From an uncultured Chloroflexia bacterium (GTDB taxonomy: Bacteria; Chloroflexota; Dehalococcoidia; DSTF01; JALHUB01), in the NCBI GenBank assembly GCA_963726245.1, contig CAVSBT010000044.1, forward strand, positions 28,177 to 92,176: 64,000 nucleotides of DNA, in the 5' to 3' direction. Both the position numbers and the translations under genes were made by a program. Below are positions 2,779 through 61,610 of this stretch, one piece after another. Each line of letters starts with the position of its first letter. The stretch's first letter is position 1. The notes under the pieces are model-generated. The model did not search any database, was not told the DNA's origin, and saw only the letters and a program-made list of their open reading frames with translations.

Positions 2779-2807
2779 TTGAGAGCACGCTGCGACGGTG
2801 ATATGAT
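2779..2807 (+). promoter_or_regulatory. Sigma70-type promoter for riboswitch copy 1
   Basis: TTGAGA-N17-TATGAT with an extended -10 TG, about 17 nt upstream of the aptamer. Confidence 0.65.
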
Positions 2808-2824
2808 ACATGGCGCAGGAAACG

Positions 2825-2888
2825 GGCGATGAAGCTCGCCCGCCCGGATCATCCGGGGTACCGCCCAAACAGGGCTGATAGCTTCTAC
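2825..2888 (+). ncRNA. Fluoride riboswitch (crcB motif), copy 1
   Basis: P1 GGCGA-UGAAGC-UCGCC, P2 GCCC-AAACA-GGGC, then UGAUAGCUUCUAC, whose GCUUC can pseudoknot with the P1 loop GAAGC. This matches the crcB-motif architecture. Confidence 0.85.
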
Positions 2889-2914
2889 GGACTCACAGCC
2901 GTAGGAGCTTTCTT
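2880..2914 (+). terminator. Intrinsic terminator (riboswitch expression platform), copy 1
   Basis: AGCTTCTACGG-actcacag-CCGTAGGAGCT followed by TTCTT. Its 5' arm overlaps the pseudoknot strand. Confidence 0.75.
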
Positions 2915-2998
2915 GATGACGGGTTATGCCAGGCTCAAGCGTTCTGCAACCTTTCCCTTAGAGCCGACCAATCCATAGCTCTAGTATCGCTTGCTCCA

Positions 2999-3391
2999 AT
3001 GCCTACACGAACACCCTTCGACGTCCTTGGAGTCCCTCCTCATGCTAAGCTTGCCGTCATCCGTGCTGCATACCGCGCCCTCGCTCGGAAATACCACCCA
3101 GACACCGGTCGCATCCCCAGTGACAGATCGCACAAGCTCATGGTCGAGCTCAACTGGGCAATGGAGGAGCTGCAACGCGATCTTGCCGGCTGGCGAACAC
3201 GGGCTGGCGTCCAGCAGCCCGCCGACGCGAAGACCGACTCTTCCGTCAGAGTCCAGAACAATGAAGCCCCTGACTCCTCCACGCCCCACGCCAAGGCCTT
3301 TGACGAACGATGGAGGCGATTCATGGAGAAGTACTCGAGGAGCTGCTCCACGGACTCCTCCGACGAGACGCCGCTCTCAAAGAGCTGGTGA
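2999..3391 (+). CDS. J-domain (DnaJ-type) protein
   Basis: PFDVLGV...IRAAYRALARKYHPD...MVELNWA, a J-domain with the HPD motif. Confidence 0.8.
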   Translation: MPTRTPFDVLGVPPHAKLAVIRAAYRALARKYHPDTGRIPSDRSHKLMVELNWAMEELQRDLAGWRTRAGVQQPADAKTDSSVRVQNNEAPDSSTPHAKAFDERWRRFMEKYSRSCSTDSSDETPLSKSW

Positions 3392-3427
3392 AAGCCAGTG
3401 CCACCCCACAGTCGAAGAGGCGAGCGC

Positions 3428-3456
3428 TTGAGGCCGGGTGTCGGAGGTGCTAGCAT
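3428..3456 (+). promoter_or_regulatory. Sigma70-type promoter for riboswitch copy 2
   Basis: TTGAGG-N17-TAGCAT with an extended -10 TG, in the same position relative to the aptamer as copy 1. Confidence 0.65.
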
Positions 3457-3473
3457 ATAGACACGGAAAACGG

Positions 3474-3537
3474 GGCGATGAAGCTCGCCCGCCCGGACCA
3501 TCTGGGGTACCGCCCAAACAGGGCTGATAGCTTCTAC
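3474..3537 (+). ncRNA. Fluoride riboswitch (crcB motif), copy 2
   Basis: Near-identical to 2825-2888: GGCGAUGAAGCUCGCC...GCCCAAACAGGGCUGAUAGCUUCUAC. Confidence 0.85.
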
Positions 3538-3563
3538 GGATTCACAGCCGTAGGAGCTTTTTT
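3529..3563 (+). terminator. Intrinsic terminator (riboswitch expression platform), copy 2
   Basis: AGCTTCTACGG-attcacag-CCGTAGGAGCT followed by a T run. Confidence 0.8.
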
Positions 3564-3564
3564 C

Positions 3565-4431
3565 ATGGGGTTTGGGGAACGCGCTGTGGTCAGCACAGAG
3601 GTGGCGCCGCTCGCGCTGGACCTTTCTCGGGTCGCGGGCTACGTGGCATCGTGCCGCGTACCCGATGGAGGGTACTTCTTCGCCCAGATCTCGCCTGCCA
3701 GCGCCCAAGACACCTACTTCGCCCTTGCCTCTCTGCGACTCCTTGGGCAAGAGCCCCAAGACGTGACGGGTGTGAAACGATGGGTAGAGGAATGGCGCCG
3801 GACACCCAGTAACGTGGCCAGCGTCCACGGCGCGTACCTTCTCTGCGGCCTGCTTGAAGAGCTAGGCGAAGGCCTCGATCCGGCGCGTCCCTACGCCAGG
3901 CTGATCGCCGACAGCGAGAATAGCCTGGGGGGCTTCGGTACCTACGAGAACGTGTACGTGGAATCGGCATCAGAGCTTCAGGTGACCTGCGAGGTCGTGT
4001 CGGTGCTGACAAGATTGGGATGCCCGCCCAACCATGAGCGTGTTGAGAGTTTCTTGCGTCGGTTCCGTCAGCCAGACGGCGGATTCGGCCTCTACCGCTC
4101 GACGCTGCCCTCAACCTACCACGCGTGCGCCGCGCTTGCCCAACTGCCGGAGTCAGGGCCCCTCGTGGACGGCGCGCGGCTCTACCTCCAACGAGAGGCG
4201 CAGCGGTGGGCGGCTTATTTCCTAGACGATGTCTTCTACCTGATCCAAGGACTCAGCTTGACCGGCAGCGCGGCGGCATCTGCCGCCAATGCTGCCACCC
4301 ACGTGCTGGCCTGCCAGCGGCCGCGGGGTGGCTTTGCCCGCGCTCCCGTCATCGGCATTCCCACGCTGGAGCACACCTACTACGCCCTTCAGGTGCTCGA
4401 TTCGGTGGGTCTCCTCAGCGGGCAGCGATGA
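3565..4431 (+). CDS. Prenyltransferase/squalene-cyclase (PFTB-like) repeat protein
   Basis: Repeated (Q/R)xxDGGF..S..xTY(F/H)AxxxL units. Start moved from 3478 (inside the riboswitch) to ATG 3565, or possibly GTG 3601. Confidence 0.8.
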   Translation: MGFGERAVVSTEVAPLALDLSRVAGYVASCRVPDGGYFFAQISPASAQDTYFALASLRLLGQEPQDVTGVKRWVEEWRRTPSNVASVHGAYLLCGLLEELGEGLDPARPYARLIADSENSLGGFGTYENVYVESASELQVTCEVVSVLTRLGCPPNHERVESFLRRFRQPDGGFGLYRSTLPSTYHACAALAQLPESGPLVDGARLYLQREAQRWAAYFLDDVFYLIQGLSLTGSAAASAANAATHVLACQRPRGGFARAPVIGIPTLEHTYYALQVLDSVGLLSGQR

Positions 4432-5831
4432 GAAATGACGAGGGGATGCAAGCATTGAACCAGGTCCCCAAGAGTGAGGCCCCCAAAGACACCGCCGAAG
4501 CGGTCGTGCTGCGACCGAGGGGCACGTACAACGACTTCGTGTTTGATGAGCGATACCGTATGGTACGCCTGAAGGGGGTGGTCCGCCGGGCCGGCTCGGT
4601 GGCCGAGGTGGGAGAGGTGCGCGGGGCATGGGACTCCGACGGCGAGCCCTTCCAGGCTCTGGTATTCACCGCTTTGCCCACATTGCCCGGCTGTATAGTC
4701 CGCGGCCACGTCGAGGGCGCGCTGGAGGGTCGAACTGCGGAGGGCGCCAGGCATGCGCTCGTGCTGAGCACAGCCGGTCAGGGCGATGCTCTGTCTCAGA
4801 AAACGCTGGCTGGGCAGGTCCTACCAACGGCTGTCGCCCTCCTAGGTTGGAGGCCGTCCACCGAGGTGCGGTGGCTGGAGAAGGACGCAGCGCTCGCCCT
4901 GCTGTGGGAGGGACGCCAGAGACTGCTTGCCGATCGCGCCCGGCAGCGGCCGGCGCGGCATGGCGCCGCCTGGAAGGCGCAGCCCGGTGAACGCCCCCGA
5001 GAGGGTTCGCCCTACACGGAACCCCACACCTGGGCCGAAAGGATGGTGGGCAGCCTGCCCTTCCGATTCCAGCGTTATGTGCAGGACGAGCTTCTGGAGG
5101 AGGAACGCATACTCTTCTTCGTGGAGCGGCCTCCCTTCCGGCCGCCTGGGGCGCGCTGGGGCGTCCTGCGACGGCAGCGGTTGAGCGAAGGGCTTCTCAT
5201 CGTCACCGACCGGCAGCTCTTGTTCATGGAGGACGCTCTGCCCCCAGACATAACGATGGTTCACTGGGGGTACATCGCCCGTGTGACGGCCGTGGAACGA
5301 ATCCAGAGCGCAGAGCTGCGCGCGGAACCCGACCGCGCTGTCCTTCACGTCCGGGTGCATGCGCAATCTGGGTCAGAGCACCTCTCTGTGCCCTTTCCCC
5401 CGGAATGCAAGGACCCTCTCGCCGAAGTCGAGTCGCTCCTGCGGTCCTTCGCTTCGCCTGAAGGCGGCGCGGTCAGACGCCTCTACGCCGAGGAAGACGG
5501 GGCGAAAGACAGGGAGGTCGTGGAGGCGTCCAGCCGGGTAGGGAACTGGGCACGGGTCGAGGGGAAGGATGTGGTGGTTCACGGCCCGCGCGGCGAGGCG
5601 CGCCTTGACTCTGCCTGCATCTCGACTGTCGAGTTCATGAACTCACTGGTGGGGTGCCGCTTGAGATTCTTCTCGCCACAAGAGAGGCACCTTACCGAGT
5701 CCTCGGTGCCCTTCGAGTACCCTGAGGCTGAGCTGTTCCTGGCGGTCTACAAGAGGGTTCGCTGGCTGCTCGCGAGGCCGCTCGCTGCCCAGCCAGCCGG
5801 GCAAGACGCCGCCGCAACCGTGCAGCGATGA
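4428..5831 (+). CDS. Degenerate family I inorganic pyrophosphatase domain fused to PH-like domain(s)
   Basis: ATGA-coupled to the upstream gene. N-terminal AVVLRPRGT..FDE..DSDGEPFQALV..PTLPGCIV aligns by eye to Ppa (VVIEIP..DGDPVDVLV..P..PG.V). C-terminal L.EEERIL..GLLIVTDRQLLF resembles a bacterial PH domain. Confidence 0.7.
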   Translation: MRNDEGMQALNQVPKSEAPKDTAEAVVLRPRGTYNDFVFDERYRMVRLKGVVRRAGSVAEVGEVRGAWDSDGEPFQALVFTALPTLPGCIVRGHVEGALEGRTAEGARHALVLSTAGQGDALSQKTLAGQVLPTAVALLGWRPSTEVRWLEKDAALALLWEGRQRLLADRARQRPARHGAAWKAQPGERPREGSPYTEPHTWAERMVGSLPFRFQRYVQDELLEEERILFFVERPPFRPPGARWGVLRRQRLSEGLLIVTDRQLLFMEDALPPDITMVHWGYIARVTAVERIQSAELRAEPDRAVLHVRVHAQSGSEHLSVPFPPECKDPLAEVESLLRSFASPEGGAVRRLYAEEDGAKDREVVEASSRVGNWARVEGKDVVVHGPRGEARLDSACISTVEFMNSLVGCRLRFFSPQERHLTESSVPFEYPEAELFLAVYKRVRWLLARPLAAQPAGQDAAATVQR

Positions 5832-5981: not shown

Positions 5982-6675
5982 ATGGCAAGGCTGCTGGCGG
6001 CGCTGACCGTCGTCCTCATGCTCACCCTCACTGCCTGCAAGAACGCCACATCTCACCACCACTGGGACGCCCAAAGGGATCGCAGAGCGCATAGACTGCA
6101 TCGCGGGAACGCCCGAAGCCATCATGGGGTGTGTAGAGCGTGCGGTGGCAGGCTCGGGAGGGTATCGCATTACGATCACCGGTCAGAATCTTGTCCTGCC
6201 CGAGTGGGGCGGGATCGACAGCGGAACGATTGATGTCGGCACGGACGGGACTGTGGTCCGAGGTGACGTCGAACGCACCGGTGACGGGCCATACTCCCTC
6301 GTCTCACTTGGCGGCGAGACGTTCTTCCAGCGCGGGACTTGTGACCACATGGCCCGTGTTCCTGGTGGCGGAGCGGCCGTGGTCACGCCCTTCCTGCTGG
6401 GCACCAGCGGGGCGTTGAGCCGAGCTACGAATGTGCGATTCGGTGGGACCGCCTACAAGGACTTCATAGCGGTCCGGGCGAACGTTGAAGACCTCGGTGA
6501 CGTGCTCATCCAGCTTGACACGTCGACCTACCTTCCGTTTCGACTGGTCAAAGAGCCTGGCCCCAACGGCGGAAGCCAATTCCAGTGGCTGTTCAGCGAT
6601 TGGGGACAGGCGCCGTCGGTCTCAAGACCGGCCGGCACACCCCCAGATCAGGGACCGGGCGGCAACCCCTGCTGA
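5982..6675 (+). CDS. Putative lipoprotein (apparent frameshift near 6050)
   Basis: Lipobox MARLLAALTVVLMLTLTA-C in one frame. The body continues in the 6124..6675 frame, which is open upstream of 6124. Confidence 0.6.
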
Positions 6676-6871
6676 AGGGGTCGGGCCCCGCTCAGCCTCC
6701 ACGTATTGACCCCTGCGCCGACTTCAGAAGTGCGCCTTCCGTCCGATCCTTTATTGGTGGCAGCTTGCCACCTCTCCTGACAAGAGGCTCATGGTCGCCC
6801 TACGGGAAGAGTGGTCTAGAGAGCAGCATGCGGACCAGGGGCCGGCCTCCGATGCGGAAGCGGCTCGCTGG

Positions 6872-7255
6872 ATGAGCCTGCGTCACGCTTCCTGCCGCCT
6901 CGACGTCTGCCCCAGCACCCTGCGCCGGCGAATCCGAAAGGGCCAGTTGCCCTGGCGCATCGTCAACCACGGCCGCCGCTGGGCCTACGAGGTGCTGGTC
7001 CCCAACGGCGCCTCCCCATGCGCCGCGCTCGAACGGGTGGTCAGCGTGGAAGCCCATCTCCCTCACCAGGTGGACGAGAAAGAGAAAGAGATCAACCGCC
7101 TGAAGTACGATATCCACCGCCAGGAAGAGCAGATTGAGAATCTGTCCCAGGCCCTGGCTCGGGCGCGGGCCGGAAGCCGCTACACGCCGGAGGACAGCCC
7201 CTTCACCAAGTATCGAGATCTGGCGCTCCGGCGCCGCCGCTGGTGGCTCTTCTAG
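6872..7255 (+). CDS. Helix-turn-helix DNA-binding protein with coiled coil
   Basis: MSLRHASCRLDVCPSTLRRRIRKGQL (MerR/excisionase-like HTH) followed by heptad repeats. The start could be at 6791. Confidence 0.65.
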   Translation: MSLRHASCRLDVCPSTLRRRIRKGQLPWRIVNHGRRWAYEVLVPNGASPCAALERVVSVEAHLPHQVDEKEKEINRLKYDIHRQEEQIENLSQALARARAGSRYTPEDSPFTKYRDLALRRRRWWLF

Positions 7256-8125: not shown

Positions 8126-10096
<1,971 letters not shown>

Positions 10097-10812: not shown

Positions 10813-11100
10813 TTAGCTTGCCCGCGCCGCCCTGGCCCTCCGCCGTTCAGTCCCACGAGACCTCGCGACCTGCGCCGCATCCACGGTCAGTCTCGAGGCC
10901 TCATCGGCACGCTGAAGACCGATTTCAAGCACAGGTACGATCGCCGCGGGAAGAACGTCCTCGGGACTTTGGCCGATATTGACGGCGCTTATCCCGAATT
11001 TCACCACGATCCCCCAGAGCCCCTCCTCCAGGCCCGCCTTCCGAACCATCATTTCGGCAAGCTCTTTGTACGTAAACATGATTTGCTTGGTCTCAGCCAT
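10813..11100 (-). CDS. Hypothetical 95-aa protein, third gene of the hicAB-like operon
   Basis: GGGGAGG RBS before MAETKQ; the start overlaps the hicB-like stop. Confidence 0.7.
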   Translation of the reverse strand: MAETKQIMFTYKELAEMMVRKAGLEEGLWGIVVKFGISAVNIGQSPEDVLPAAIVPVLEIGLQRADEASRLTVDAAQVARSRGTERRRARAARAS

Positions 11101-11671
11101 GCTCGACCTCCCCTCGAGCCAGTACGCTTCGCGCTTGACGAGCTGTTGTATACTCCGTGGCGGGCACAACCACGCCAGCACCTAACCGCCCCGTTAAAGG
11201 TGCCCCCTCTGTGACGGCCTCCTGGATTACCTCCATTTGCAGGTAAGACCTGCGGCGGGTATAGACGCGAGCGAGGCGATCATCCAGCCGGTCCGCCAAA
11301 ACCGCCAGCAGATCCTCGGCACCCACTCGGGCCGCGATCGCTGACACGAGGAACTGGTTCAGACTCACTCCGTCGCGATGGGCAAATTCGGCAGCGCGCC
11401 TGTGCATGCTCCTGGGCAATCGCAGAGAGACGGTCCCGCTGTAGCCCTGGCTAGCAAAGGGCTCCGGAATCGCCATACCCTGAGAGTCAGCGCTATCCAC
11501 CCAGTTCTCGGCCGCTTCCTCTAAGTTCTCGTACGCTTCCTCGGGTGTATCACCCTCAGCGAAGCAACCCGCAAACTCCAGAACTTGGGCTGCATAGCGC
11601 CCTGAGTCATCCGGCATGATAACCCGCGCGTAGGGCTTTCGCAGGTACTGCACGGCAAGTTGGCTAGGCAT
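11093..11671 (-). CDS. hicB: HicB-family antitoxin with RHH domain and long C-terminal extension
   Basis: GCFAEGDTPEEA..NLEEA...IPEP...YSGTVSLRLPRSMH...GVSLNQ; AAGGAG RBS before MPSQ. Confidence 0.9.
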   Translation of the reverse strand: MPSQLAVQYLRKPYARVIMPDDSGRYAAQVLEFAGCFAEGDTPEEAYENLEEAAENWVDSADSQGMAIPEPFASQGYSGTVSLRLPRSMHRRAAEFAHRDGVSLNQFLVSAIAARVGAEDLLAVLADRLDDRLARVYTRRRSYLQMEVIQEAVTEGAPLTGRLGAGVVVPATEYTTARQARSVLARGEVEHG

Positions 11672-11936
11672 CTGCGACTCCTTCCTCGTAGTCCAAGTCT
11701 TCTTCAAGCACGTCGAGGATGTTGTCGACAGTAATGGGGCTCATCGCGCCCGGATGGTTTGGGATGGTGAGCGGCGGTCGCCCCTCTTTCACGAATGTCG
11801 GCTCCTTTCCCCGCTTGTGAGGCCACCGTCCCACGGAGCGAGCGATGCTCCTGAGTTCCTTGCTCTCAACATTAGCCTTGCGCAAGCGGACTCGCCCGAT
11901 CCGGAGGCGGAGCCTTCGAATCCTTTGCGGATTCAT
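11664..11936 (-). CDS. HicA-like toxin (dsRBD fold, predicted)
   Basis: 90-aa basic protein, KELRSIARSVG..KRGKEPTF..PPLTIPNHP, overlapping the hicB start. Confidence 0.65.
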   Translation of the reverse strand: MNPQRIRRLRLRIGRVRLRKANVESKELRSIARSVGRWPHKRGKEPTFVKEGRPPLTIPNHPGAMSPITVDNILDVLEEDLDYEEGVADA

Positions 11937-27967: not shown

Positions 27968-28734
27968 CTCTGGCTGGTGGGCCTCACCGCTACAGAATGC
28001 AGCCGGTAGGCGAAAAGCGAGGGAATCATCCTTTGGGCCAGTCGGTAGAGGCGTGAACTATTCCCGCGCCACCGTTTCTTGCCTATCCACGGGATGTCTC
28101 GAAGAAGGCTCCCGCCGTGCCCGCCAATCTCAACCGGATGGAACCCGACGGAAGTCAGCATCCTTCTCAAAGAGTAAGGATTGAAGAAGCGAAGATGCGG
28201 ATCCCGCCACGGTTGCTCCACGGCGAGATTGTCCCCTAGCGGATTCCATCGGCCCAGCAATGCAAGATCGATGCGCCTGCGCCAGTATGCCACGTTGGGA
28301 ACGGTGACGATCAGCACACCCCCCGGTCGGAGGACACGGAAGATTTCGGCCGCCGCCAGGTGAGGTTCGAATAGATGCTCCATCACCTCAATGCAGACCG
28401 CAGCATCGAATGTCGCCTCCAAGAACGGCAGCGGGGCCCCGTCATCTATCTTTCTTGCGTCGAGCCCCAACGCCTGCGCGGCCCGAACAGCGTTCTCCGA
28501 AACGTCGAGGCCAACGTATTCGCATCCGTGGTCACGCAGATAGAGGCCTGCCGTGCGGCCGTCACCGCATCCCACCTCCAGACATCTCCACCCTGTGCGA
28601 ATGTGCGCTTGGAAGAGCTGCGCCAGAGTCGGCGTGATAGCGCCGGAGGGGCAGAATCCATCGTCGGACCAGTACGTCTCGTAGTAATCGCTCACCCCCG
28701 CTGTGGAATGCTTTCCCACCTTCATCGCCGGCAC
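27964..28734 (-). CDS. Class I SAM-dependent methyltransferase
   Basis: LEVGCGDG, EVMEHL and RVLRPGG motifs. Confidence 0.9.
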   Translation of the reverse strand: MPAMKVGKHSTAGVSDYYETYWSDDGFCPSGAITPTLAQLFQAHIRTGWRCLEVGCGDGRTAGLYLRDHGCEYVGLDVSENAVRAAQALGLDARKIDDGAPLPFLEATFDAAVCIEVMEHLFEPHLAAAEIFRVLRPGGVLIVTVPNVAYWRRRIDLALLGRWNPLGDNLAVEQPWRDPHLRFFNPYSLRRMLTSVGFHPVEIGGHGGSLLRDIPWIGKKRWRGNSSRLYRLAQRMIPSLFAYRLHSVAVRPTSQR

Positions 28735-61534: not shown

Positions 61535-61610
61535 GGGGATATAGCTCAATTGGGAGAGCGCGGCGTTCGCATCGCCGAGGTCGGGGGTTCGAATCCCCCT
61601 ATCTCCACCA
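61535..61610 (+). tRNA. tRNA-Ala(CGC)
   Basis: 76-nt cloverleaf, anticodon loop TT-CGC-AT, G3:U70 pair, TTCGAAT T-loop, encoded CCA. Confidence 0.96.

Follow-up and report, generated by a model that had tools for sequence, protein, structure and literature searches.

A stretch of 64,000 nucleotides (nt) of Dehalococcoidia DNA (lineage DSTF01; JALHUB01), corresponding to positions 28,177–92,176 of the forward strand of contig CAVSBT010000044.1 in assembly GCA_963726245.1 and referred to as the window below, carries two fluoride riboswitch aptamers, copy A and copy B, each placed in front of its own gene set. Copy A precedes a gene for a J-domain protein, and copy B precedes an operon of two genes which code for a prenyltransferase-like α/α-toroid (protein B) and for a fusion of a degenerate inorganic pyrophosphatase (PPase) domain with two PH-like domains (protein C). 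With modest confidence, we interpret the locus as two fluoride-induced units which originated by duplication, and proteins B and C as probably non-catalytic binding or scaffold proteins that act on fluoride-affected proteins. The genome harboring the window (G000) is a metagenome bin of 2.68 Mb in 46 contigs with a completeness of 82.8%. The locus comprises the following elements.

2779–2807, forward strand: predicted promoter-like site A, TTGAGA and TATGAT with a 17-nt spacer and TG (consensus scan, 10/12 matches)
2816–2894, forward strand: fluoride riboswitch aptamer copy A (RF01734, 39.3 bits, E = 2.2e-7, model positions 1–64 complete)
2880–2915, forward strand: predicted terminator A, an 11-bp stem at 2880–2909 followed by the run TTTCTT (terminator scan and folding)
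2916–2978, forward strand: open reading frame (ORF) of 20 codons, its ATG 8 nt past AGGAG (sequence reading)
2999–3391, forward strand: J-domain protein, 130 amino acids (aa) (PF00226, 39.8 bits against a cut-off of 27.8, E = 4.9e-10)
3428–3456, forward strand: putative promoter-like site B, TTGAGG and TAGCAT with a 17-nt spacer and TG (aligns with site A)
3465–3543, forward strand: fluoride riboswitch aptamer copy B (RF01734, 37.3 bits, E = 1e-6, model positions 1–64 complete)
3529–3564, forward strand: predicted terminator B, an 11-bp stem at 3529–3558 followed by TTTTTT (terminator scan and folding)
3565–4431, forward strand: prenyltransferase-like α/α-toroid, 288 aa (PF00432, 48.6 bits against a cut-off of 26.5, E = 9.8e-13, in three stretches)
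4428–4949, forward strand: pseudo-PPase domain with the family I PPase fold (Foldseek and family profile)
4950–5831, forward strand: linker helices and tandem PH-like domains, stop codon included (AlphaFold2 (AF2) model and Foldseek)

Rfam release 15 was searched at gathering thresholds, with a cut-off of 34 bits for RF01734. Both copies exceed it, which bears out the preliminary description of this DNA, where they had been assigned to the crcB type and their terminators had been reported to overlap the aptamers; no other RF01734 match occurs in the whole 2.68-Mb genome. Folding yielded P1, an extra hairpin between P1 and P2, P2 and the terminator, with z-scores of -5.1 for copy A (110-nt fold) and -2.6 for copy B. 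In each predicted terminator, the 5' arm is the pseudoknot strand of the aptamer, and an AGGAG ribosome-binding site is located inside the 3' arm of both terminators, with the ATG following 8 nt downstream (2916 and 3565). From this anatomy and the established mechanism of the riboswitch family, regulation as an ON switch can be proposed with fair confidence. In the absence of fluoride the 11-bp hairpin would form, terminating transcription and burying AGGAG, whereas in its presence the pseudoknot would capture the 5' arm of the hairpin, allowing read-through and exposing the start codon 8 nt downstream. Such a terminator-overlap ON design is known for crcB RNAs (PMC2864571). The switches share with RF01734 representatives the aptamer core, P1, P2, the pseudoknot and the use of the pseudoknot strand as 5' arm of the terminator, and RF01734 switches precede crcB in sister families of the window's family. 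They differ in a 16-nt hairpin inserted between P1 and P2, in the ribosome-binding site inside the terminator, by which both transcription and translation may be controlled, and in downstream genes which lie outside the classes named in the reviews consulted.

Copies A and B differ at 5 of 95 aligned positions (2824–2918 versus 3473–3567), and the two near-identical stretches of about 90 nt delineated in the preliminary description differ at 4 positions. One of the differences preserves pairing in the inserted hairpin (C-G to U-G), and a fainter similarity extends upstream across the promoter-like site common to both copies. Judging from these alignments, the two copies arose by local duplication. 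An assembly artefact was considered and rejected in view of the five differences, the unique flanks, and independent contigs that join copy A to the J-domain gene. The 20-codon ORF behind copy A is probably left over from the first gene of the operon, now lost, whose start was copied along: the duplication reaches the ATG of this ORF at 2916. A promoter for each copy, as had been claimed before, can be maintained in part: a scan for sigma-70-like consensus sites returned two sites in the region, compared to 0.4 expected, and detected site A, but site B is weaker, falls under the threshold of the scanner, and was recognized only by alignment of the copies.

The term “tandem riboswitches” used in the preliminary description has to be dropped, because the copies are 649 nt apart with a complete gene (393 nt) between them, and because relatives possess a single switch. 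With its intervening gene and second promoter-like site, the locus would represent two serial transcription units rather than a classical tandem riboswitch, i.e., two switches in one 5' untranslated region kept as a pair. It has in common with tandem riboswitches that two near-identical complete switches reside on one strand, and it is distinguished by the 649 nt and the gene in between, by the individual promoter-like sites, and by the apparently recent local duplication. The duplicated segment would thus have comprised a riboswitch and the promoter-like site, terminator, ribosome-binding site and start codon belonging to it, giving two units in series. Besides that of copy B, a terminator scan between the J-domain gene and the toroid gene identified none; transcripts initiated at promoter A would therefore have to pass both switches before reaching the genes of proteins B and C.

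The J-domain gene behind the first switch had been noted previously, and its product indeed contains a J domain (residues 6–59) with HPD at residues 33–35. The Pfam and NCBIfam scan revealed neither another domain nor a known substrate-binding domain. Its close homologues, likewise of 130 aa, are 79–87% identical. Short Logan contigs from two other studies connect terminator A with the J-domain gene at about 92–95% identity (X1, 2880–3210; X2, 2819–3017), and contigs in two runs depart from the window sequence past 3410. Because the switch and the J-domain gene are joined in these contigs and the sequences diverge after 3410, the riboswitch-J unit is real and not always located beside the operon. 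Each of the DNA sequencing runs sharing sequence with the window did so with a share of at most 0.18. Public gene calls of the J-domain gene and its close homologues (P0311–P0317) are often truncated to 76–83 aa by internal Met starts, and such a truncated call is also present on the window's own contig. As the truncated products lose the J domain, a chaperone link would escape annotations.

To place the operon among its relatives, 63 loci related to the 467-aa protein C were compiled, 5 from genomes and 58 from metagenomes, with record titles referring to Dehalococcoidia, Chloroflexia and Chloroflexi bins. A toroid homologue is located directly 5' of the protein C homologue in 40 of the 63 loci, or in 40 of the 51 which offer at least 300 nt of room, and the identity of these toroids to the window's copy goes down to 36%. 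Aptamers were searched for with R1, a covariance model derived from 14 Chloroflexota aptamers which had been found with RF01734 (13 of the 14 above cut-off). Among the 31 loci having at least 1,700 nt upstream, 29 contain a same-strand R1 aptamer within 1,545 nt; the two others (L095 and L097) harbor weak partial homologues. The aptamer is also present in seven loci with less than 1,700 nt upstream, and 25 of the 63 loci are too short for judging its presence. Identities in the related loci range from 92% to about 30% and fall into at least five bands. Homologues of 3565–4431 and of 4428–5831 are thus linked to fluoride aptamers, which is the outcome of a neighbourhood survey that the preliminary description had suggested.

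Covariation was analyzed in an alignment of 64 R1 matches, 62 of them distinct. Across the 62 distinct aptamers, 98.7% of the P1, P2 and pseudoknot cells pair canonically, a figure in which the counts for P1 and P2 are biased towards the model used for fitting the alignment, and 10 of 14 pairs are changed on both sides. None of 500 shuffles attained these values, and sliding the partner columns by 1–3 positions decreased pairing to 38–57%. The pseudoknot helix provides a more independent test, as it is not contained in the R1 model; it is 99.7% paired, with one pair occurring as AU in 27, GC in 17 and GU in 16 cases. When seven further loci were searched by E-value against 4,227 families, all 14 matches with E ≤ 1 were RF01734 at the same coordinates, with scores of 20.2–31.4 bits, under the cut-off of 34.

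The usual operon in relatives consists of one aptamer followed by a gene which we term gene A, the toroid gene and the pseudo-PPase-PH gene. The product of gene A (185–198 aa) has a helical N-terminal domain and a leucine-zipper-like coiled coil; it belongs to no Pfam family and gave only sub-threshold bZIP-like matches. A relationship to DUF6062 was considered for this protein and rejected, as BLASTP gave no relation. P0038 (462 aa, NCBI) is a natural fusion of gene A with tandem PH domains (50% identity over 121 aa, E = 7e-38), in which the gene A part occupies the place of the pseudo-PPase domain; this fusion ties gene A functionally to protein C. By blastn, window positions 3438–3570 align to positions 1–133 of the closest relative, L049, and homology resumes at 3587, matching the toroid start of the relative. 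Since homology breaks at 3570 and resumes at 3587, gene A has been deleted from the window, and a search of the remaining genome did not find it. The orthologous toroid start is GTG 3586, and the first seven codons of the present toroid gene are the deletion junction to the start codon of gene A. The toroid ORF is thus joined in frame to the riboswitch-controlled ATG of gene A, from which, following the in-frame loss of that gene, protein B would be translated. Copy B would be the orthologous, ancestral switch, because its homology to relatives includes the upstream flank; copy A has only the aptamer, the terminator and the ATG in common with them. Relatives at 83–92% identity contain a single switch, and the arrangement in the window is, as far as such comparisons tell, derived rather than ancestral. 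A member of another genus of the same family (G004, 60% identity) carries the operon behind an aptamer which passes the Rfam cut-off with 37.4 bits.

These data bear on the possibility that the genes merely reside in mobile or variable fluoride islands without having a role in the fluoride response, or that the aptamers have drifted to another ligand. Several loci do comprise 3–5 aptamers in front of very diverse genes, and the distribution of the operon is patchy, with 2 of 18 genomes of the window's family containing it and the toroid occurring in 3 of 401 sampled genomes of the phylum, the window's included. However, the aptamer is situated directly in the 5' leader of the operon, with the ribosome-binding site inside the terminator, in clades of 31%–92% identity; after deletion of gene A the regulated start was retained by an in-frame fusion with the following gene; and the core and pseudoknot nucleotides of the aptamers agree with the fluoride consensus. 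We regard hitch-hiking or a change of ligand as very unlikely.

Protein C (467 aa, 4428–5831, +) overlaps with its start the stop codon of the toroid gene (ATGA, 4428–4431), and translation of the pair is coupled, in agreement with the two-gene operon, headed by a PFTB-repeat protein, that had been described earlier. Its sole Pfam signal is PF00719 over residues 30–100, at 16.8 bits below the cut-off of 23.5, which is reached by distant family members and by the family profile. In the AF2 model of the protein (29 homologues; pLDDT 77.7), the N-terminal ~170 residues match PPases of the PDB (Foldseek E = 2.3e-10, target TM-score 0.56–0.66), and the profile of the protein C family matches the PPase of Thermus thermophilus (PDB) at E = 2.3e-17. 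As structure and profile both match, the N-terminal domain is a true homologue of family I PPases. Such PPases form hexamers, and their fold has a beta-barrel core and two helices. There are 14 positions that we take to be involved in catalysis, metal binding and pyrophosphate (PPi) binding, namely, E20, K29, E31, R43, Y51, Y55, D65, D67, D70, D97, D102, K104, Y141 and K142 (E. coli PPase numbering). Protein C keeps one of them (D65), D67 being replaced by E. The members of its family that were checked keep 0–3, including those that pass Pfam's PPase cut-off, and canonical PPases from five related genomes keep all 14. From its residues, the PPase-like domain is to be considered a pseudoenzyme, and with 1 of 14 catalytic residues retained it would not be a replacement PPase. 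The “PPase-like fusion” of the preliminary description hence holds for the fold and for its fusion, now recognized as one to PH-like domains, but not for a catalytically competent enzyme. Some source annotations name genes of this family “inorganic pyrophosphatase”; such genes are not to be included in counts of PPases. Neither a soluble family I PPase nor DHHA2, the family II marker, gave a match in the window's genome; the only family I PPase fold detected in it is the dead one of the riboswitch operon. A membrane H+/Na+-pyrophosphatase is encoded at G000:C17:205704-207872 (L111; PF03030, E = 7e-245).

The most conserved portion of protein C is its C-terminal PH-like half. Modelled alone, the C-terminal 290 residues (AF2 pLDDT 79.9, pTM 0.81) form two units of a beta-sandwich plus helix, with Foldseek matches to the tandem-PH protein BBS5 (E = 1.2e-4), Rtt106 and Pob3, and with target TM-scores of 0.61–0.64 towards single bacterial PH domains. 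Pfam and NCBIfam contain no match for these 290 aa, and the ESM Atlas returned only unnamed clusters, at 0.91, besides bPH_3 and BBS5 as weak leads. A profile of the PH half retrieved 280 cluster representatives among 1.84 billion proteins, most of which have a length of 440–530 aa and carry the PH pair C-terminally; homologues of protein C number 37 in a 90%-clustered collection.

An alternative function of protein C would be that of a sensor or regulator of PPi and phosphate homeostasis, which binds PPi, phosphate or metal-fluoride or docks on the PPase of the cell. PPase genes are among the commonest neighbours of fluoride riboswitches, and phosphate guards against fluoride, as stated in PMC11139923; moreover, the N-terminal domain is genuinely PPase-derived, and the genome has a membrane H+-PPase with no soluble PPase found. 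Against such a role, the metal- and PPi-binding residues K29, R43, Y55, D70, D97, D102 and K104 (by the presumed assignment given above) are lost, and it is the PH-like half rather than the PPase half that is best conserved. A phosphate-sensing function is rather unlikely.

For protein B, 163 toroid homologues were obtained, and every one listed carries PF00432. In 117 members, C30, C250, R252, R259, E133, E137 and E269 are conserved at 80–100%, two arginines being invariant or near-invariant. Protein prenyltransferase beta subunits have Asp, Cys and His as zinc ligands, and class II cyclases are marked by DxDD. No His is conserved at ≥80% among the 117 members, and no DxDD motif occurs in the 288-aa sequence. 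A PPTA-repeat alpha subunit was not present among the scanned operon genes, although no search was aimed at it. Two other Dehalococcoidia genomes possess toroid genes at 36% identity with an aptamer immediately upstream; in these genomes, a dynamin-family GTPase and a Na+/H+ exchanger are neighbours of the toroid under their own aptamers. Prediction of a complex of protein C and the toroid from alignments gave 0.00, compared to a mark of 0.32, which is evidence in neither direction.

The toroid might instead be an enzyme acting on an isoprenoid, lipid or diphosphate, with protein C as membrane- or substrate-targeting subunit, so that the operon would alter the membrane or the pool of a metabolite, for instance to lessen permeation of hydrogen fluoride (HF). 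This would be compatible with the PF00432 match above cut-off, with the conserved Cys, Arg and Glu residues, and with the dynamin-family GTPase which, in one genome, is encoded after the toroid and has an aptamer of its own; PH-like folds, besides, are often membrane-binding. Yet the protein has no DxDD-type motif, no conserved His at the place where prenyltransferase beta subunits bind zinc, and no alpha-subunit-like, lipid or isoprenoid gene occurs among the operons examined. We consider an enzymatic role of the toroid doubtful.

The absence of an exporter from the window, stated in the preliminary description, was confirmed, and CrcB and CLC were not found in the rest of the 82.8%-complete genome either. 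A search of the 18 genomes of the window's family (G000–G017, two of them single-contig) returned no CrcB (PF02537), and only three of these genomes have a fluoride aptamer. Of the 23 other sampled genomes of the order, 15 contain CrcB, in many cases immediately downstream of a fluoride aptamer; for three sister families the counts are 7/7, 4/7 and 4/7 genomes. The genus-mate of the window's genome (G001) likewise gave no CLC; a CLC-family gene, CLC-F or otherwise, occurs in 6 of the 17 other members of the family. Canonical CLC proteins contain the motif GREGP. The CLC of G004, whose gene is ~140 kb away from the operon, contains GREGP as well as CBS-type extensions at the C-terminus and is without the Thr/Val and Asn/Met markers of CLC-F, which are given in PMC4113899. 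One toroid-carrying Dehalococcoidia genome, with the toroid under a riboswitch, also has CrcB. As far as incomplete bins can show, the lack of an exporter would be a trait of the window's family and not of the module, since CrcB coexists with the module in one genome and adjoins it in two distant loci. The genes downstream of the switches do not code for transporters, in agreement with the preliminary description. The two distant loci contain crcB homologues within a few kb of tandem-PH members (L098, 4962–5674, +; L093, 2344–2667, –), a result which rests on two CrcB query ORFs; L098 has two tandem crcB homologues 3' of an aptamer and two unnamed genes.

Sequestration, proposed in the preliminary description next to chaperoning and protection of metal-phosphate enzymes, has also been considered: fluoride or metal-fluoride would be trapped by the module in the cytoplasm, as the main defence of a lineage devoid of exporters. 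CrcB being found in 0 of 18 family genomes (two single-contig), with no CLC found in the window's genome, and the two invariant or near-invariant arginines of the toroid would fit this idea. On the other hand, the module coexists with CrcB in one genome and lies beside crcB in two distant loci, and with a fluoride aptamer in only three of the 18 genomes most of the family manages without the module. Stoichiometric binding, furthermore, cannot match a continued influx of HF. Sequestration is highly improbable.

The favoured reading remains that proteins B and C are cytoplasmic, have no transport function, and are probably non-catalytic, and that they would bind fluoride-damaged or fluoride-sensitive proteins or serve as scaffolds for them, in the manner of chaperones. 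It is favoured because protein C, without a plausible catalytic site, combines an oligomer-prone dead-enzyme fold with two binding domains, and because gene A codes for a coiled coil, which is here replaced by a J-domain co-chaperone and joined elsewhere by MoxR ATPases. Copy A would drive expression of the co-chaperone, and through the J protein DnaK would be brought into the same response to stress. A more far-reaching version, in which the products of the A/B/C operon form a transporter-independent tolerance complex with Mg-phosphate enzymes poisoned by fluoride, or metal-fluoride, as its ligands, which serves as the main inducible defence of a Dehalococcoidia family lacking Fluc/CrcB and CLC-F and is coupled to DnaK in the window's genome by the J protein taking the place of protein A, is tentative and at present unlikely.

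Several observations weigh against the favoured reading or limit its generality. In a sample of 19 loci searched with Rfam, nine fluoride matches reached the cut-off and only five of them were aptamers of the upstream type, and seven upstream aptamers in distant loci scored 29.8–31.4 bits, below the cut-off of 34. As many distant aptamers miss the Rfam cut-off, the broad association with aptamers rests partly on R1, which was itself built from Chloroflexota sequences. Many of the related loci derive from kindred metagenomes, and several are near-duplicates, so that the 29 of 31 are not independent counts. The genome bin carries 6.3% contamination. Some genomes have the toroid without protein C, and the two proteins therefore need not form an obligate complex. 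The conserved Cys, Arg and Glu residues of the toroid could form an active or ligand-binding site, and the non-catalytic nature of protein B is something we infer. The loss of gene A might mean that the module is decaying in the window's genome. Finally, J-domain homologues in six related genomes (45–56% identity) have no aptamer nearby, for which reason the chaperone link would be lineage-specific; the J-domain unit is presumably an add-on confined to the closest lineage.

Compared with known systems, the class and architecture of the riboswitch are not new, and PPase genes are known as frequent neighbours. According to PMC5533749, the operon ppaC-uspA-eno-gpmA-crcB of Enterobacter cloacae FRM is controlled by a fluoride riboswitch. 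It resembles the operon described here in that one fluoride riboswitch precedes a multi-gene operon containing a PPase-related gene, and a gpmA-type gene (His_Phos_1) is riboswitch-controlled in the window's lineage as well (G001, G004). The FRM operon provides active fluoride-sensitive enzymes and an exporter, in contrast to the dead PPase-PH fusion with a toroid partner and no exporter found here. With family I PPases (PF00719), protein C shares the fold (Foldseek E 2e-10) and profile homology (E 2e-17); it differs from them in retaining 1/14 catalytic residues, in its C-terminal extension of ~290 aa with two PH-like domains, and in its sub-cut-off score. Tandem PH proteins such as Rtt106, the middle domain of Pob3/FACT, and BBS5 likewise have two consecutive PH-like beta-sandwiches with C-terminal helix caps, and these, like the bacterial PH domains (DUF1696-type; PF14470, bPH_3), are protein- or ligand-binding modules and not enzymes. 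Here, however, identity to the tandem PH proteins is 7–15%, with no detectable sequence relation and a Foldseek E of ~1e-4 at best, and the fusion to a pseudo-PPase and the regulation by fluoride are new. As far as the literature was searched, the coiled-coil/toroid/pseudo-PPase-tandem-PH operon is a new member of the fluoride regulon, as is the recognition that its PPase is a pseudoenzyme. A literature search pairing these protein families with fluoride riboswitches gave nothing relevant; earlier surveys of gene associations may count members of the family as PPase.

Riboswitch regulons are one of the few routes to physiological roles for uncharacterized proteins and have revealed CrcB and CLC-F as exporters. 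The same logic points to conserved non-transport proteins in the fluoride response of Dehalococcoidia and other Chloroflexota, groups which are relevant to dehalogenation and organofluorine turnover in sediments. Should these proteins make cells tolerant without exporting fluoride, they would represent a second principle of fluoride defence and would also be candidates for engineering fluoride-tolerant strains for defluorination. The system should be of interest for fluoride biology, for work on riboswitch regulons, and for Dehalococcoidia research.

In related loci, the same aptamer precedes genes for Na+/H+ exchangers, gpmA-type His_Phos_1 proteins, DUF190 proteins, and subunits of the NADH-dehydrogenase/formate-hydrogenlyase type. 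Na+/H+ antiporters, formate-hydrogenlyase-type subunits, PPase and gpmA are named as classes of the fluoride regulon in PMC11139923 and PMC5533749. The presence of the aptamer in front of several such classes, and of crcB in sister families, speaks for fluoride as the signal. Fluoride islands with 3–5 aptamers in ~10 kb were observed in L088 and L094 (five each) and in L066 and L090 (three each), most of their aptamers scoring 20–31 bits, under the Rfam cut-off. ORFs behind aptamers in the high-GC relatives were accepted only with Pfam or homology support. The cargo of islands and loci includes MFS transporters, Na+/H+ exchangers, NADH-dehydrogenase subunit-H-like proteins, PP2C phosphatases, a MoxR AAA+ ATPase with DUF58, HEAT-repeat proteins, DUF6062 proteins and a DUF190-CBS protein.

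A second aptamer of G004 (35.3 bits; L010, 9634–11788, –) precedes genes containing His_Phos_1 and DUF6062. In L043–L052, a minus-strand aptamer downstream of the operon and convergent with it is located before His_Phos_1 and/or a protein of 450–505 aa, the N-terminus of which matches DUF6062, and in L094 the aptamer and the pseudo-PPase-PH gene are separated by a full-length DUF6062 gene. From these positions, DUF6062 looks like another uncharacterized family of the fluoride regulon. His_Phos_1 and DUF6062 genes are not contained in the window, and a DUF6062 protein was not found in the genome with the query used. The genus-mate G001 has a single fluoride aptamer (L026, G001:C7:8117-11192, 1501–1576, –) in front of a gpmA-like His_Phos_1 gene. 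This aptamer adjoins a gene for a zinc alcohol dehydrogenase, and in the window an alcohol dehydrogenase gene (1506–2543, –) is located beside the switch; the same neighbourhood may carry other fluoride-responsive genes in one genome than in the other.

Four clustered tRNA genes directly precede the operon aptamer in one clade (L055, 1177–1629; L056, 3311–3764), and L056 contains a T-box leader behind the operon (6658–6882). Other genes of the window, without apparent link to the riboswitch locus, code for FeoB (8126–10096, –) and a HicB-family antitoxin-like protein (11093–11707, –). The third Rfam RNA of the window, besides the two aptamers, is a tRNA at 61535–61607 (+).

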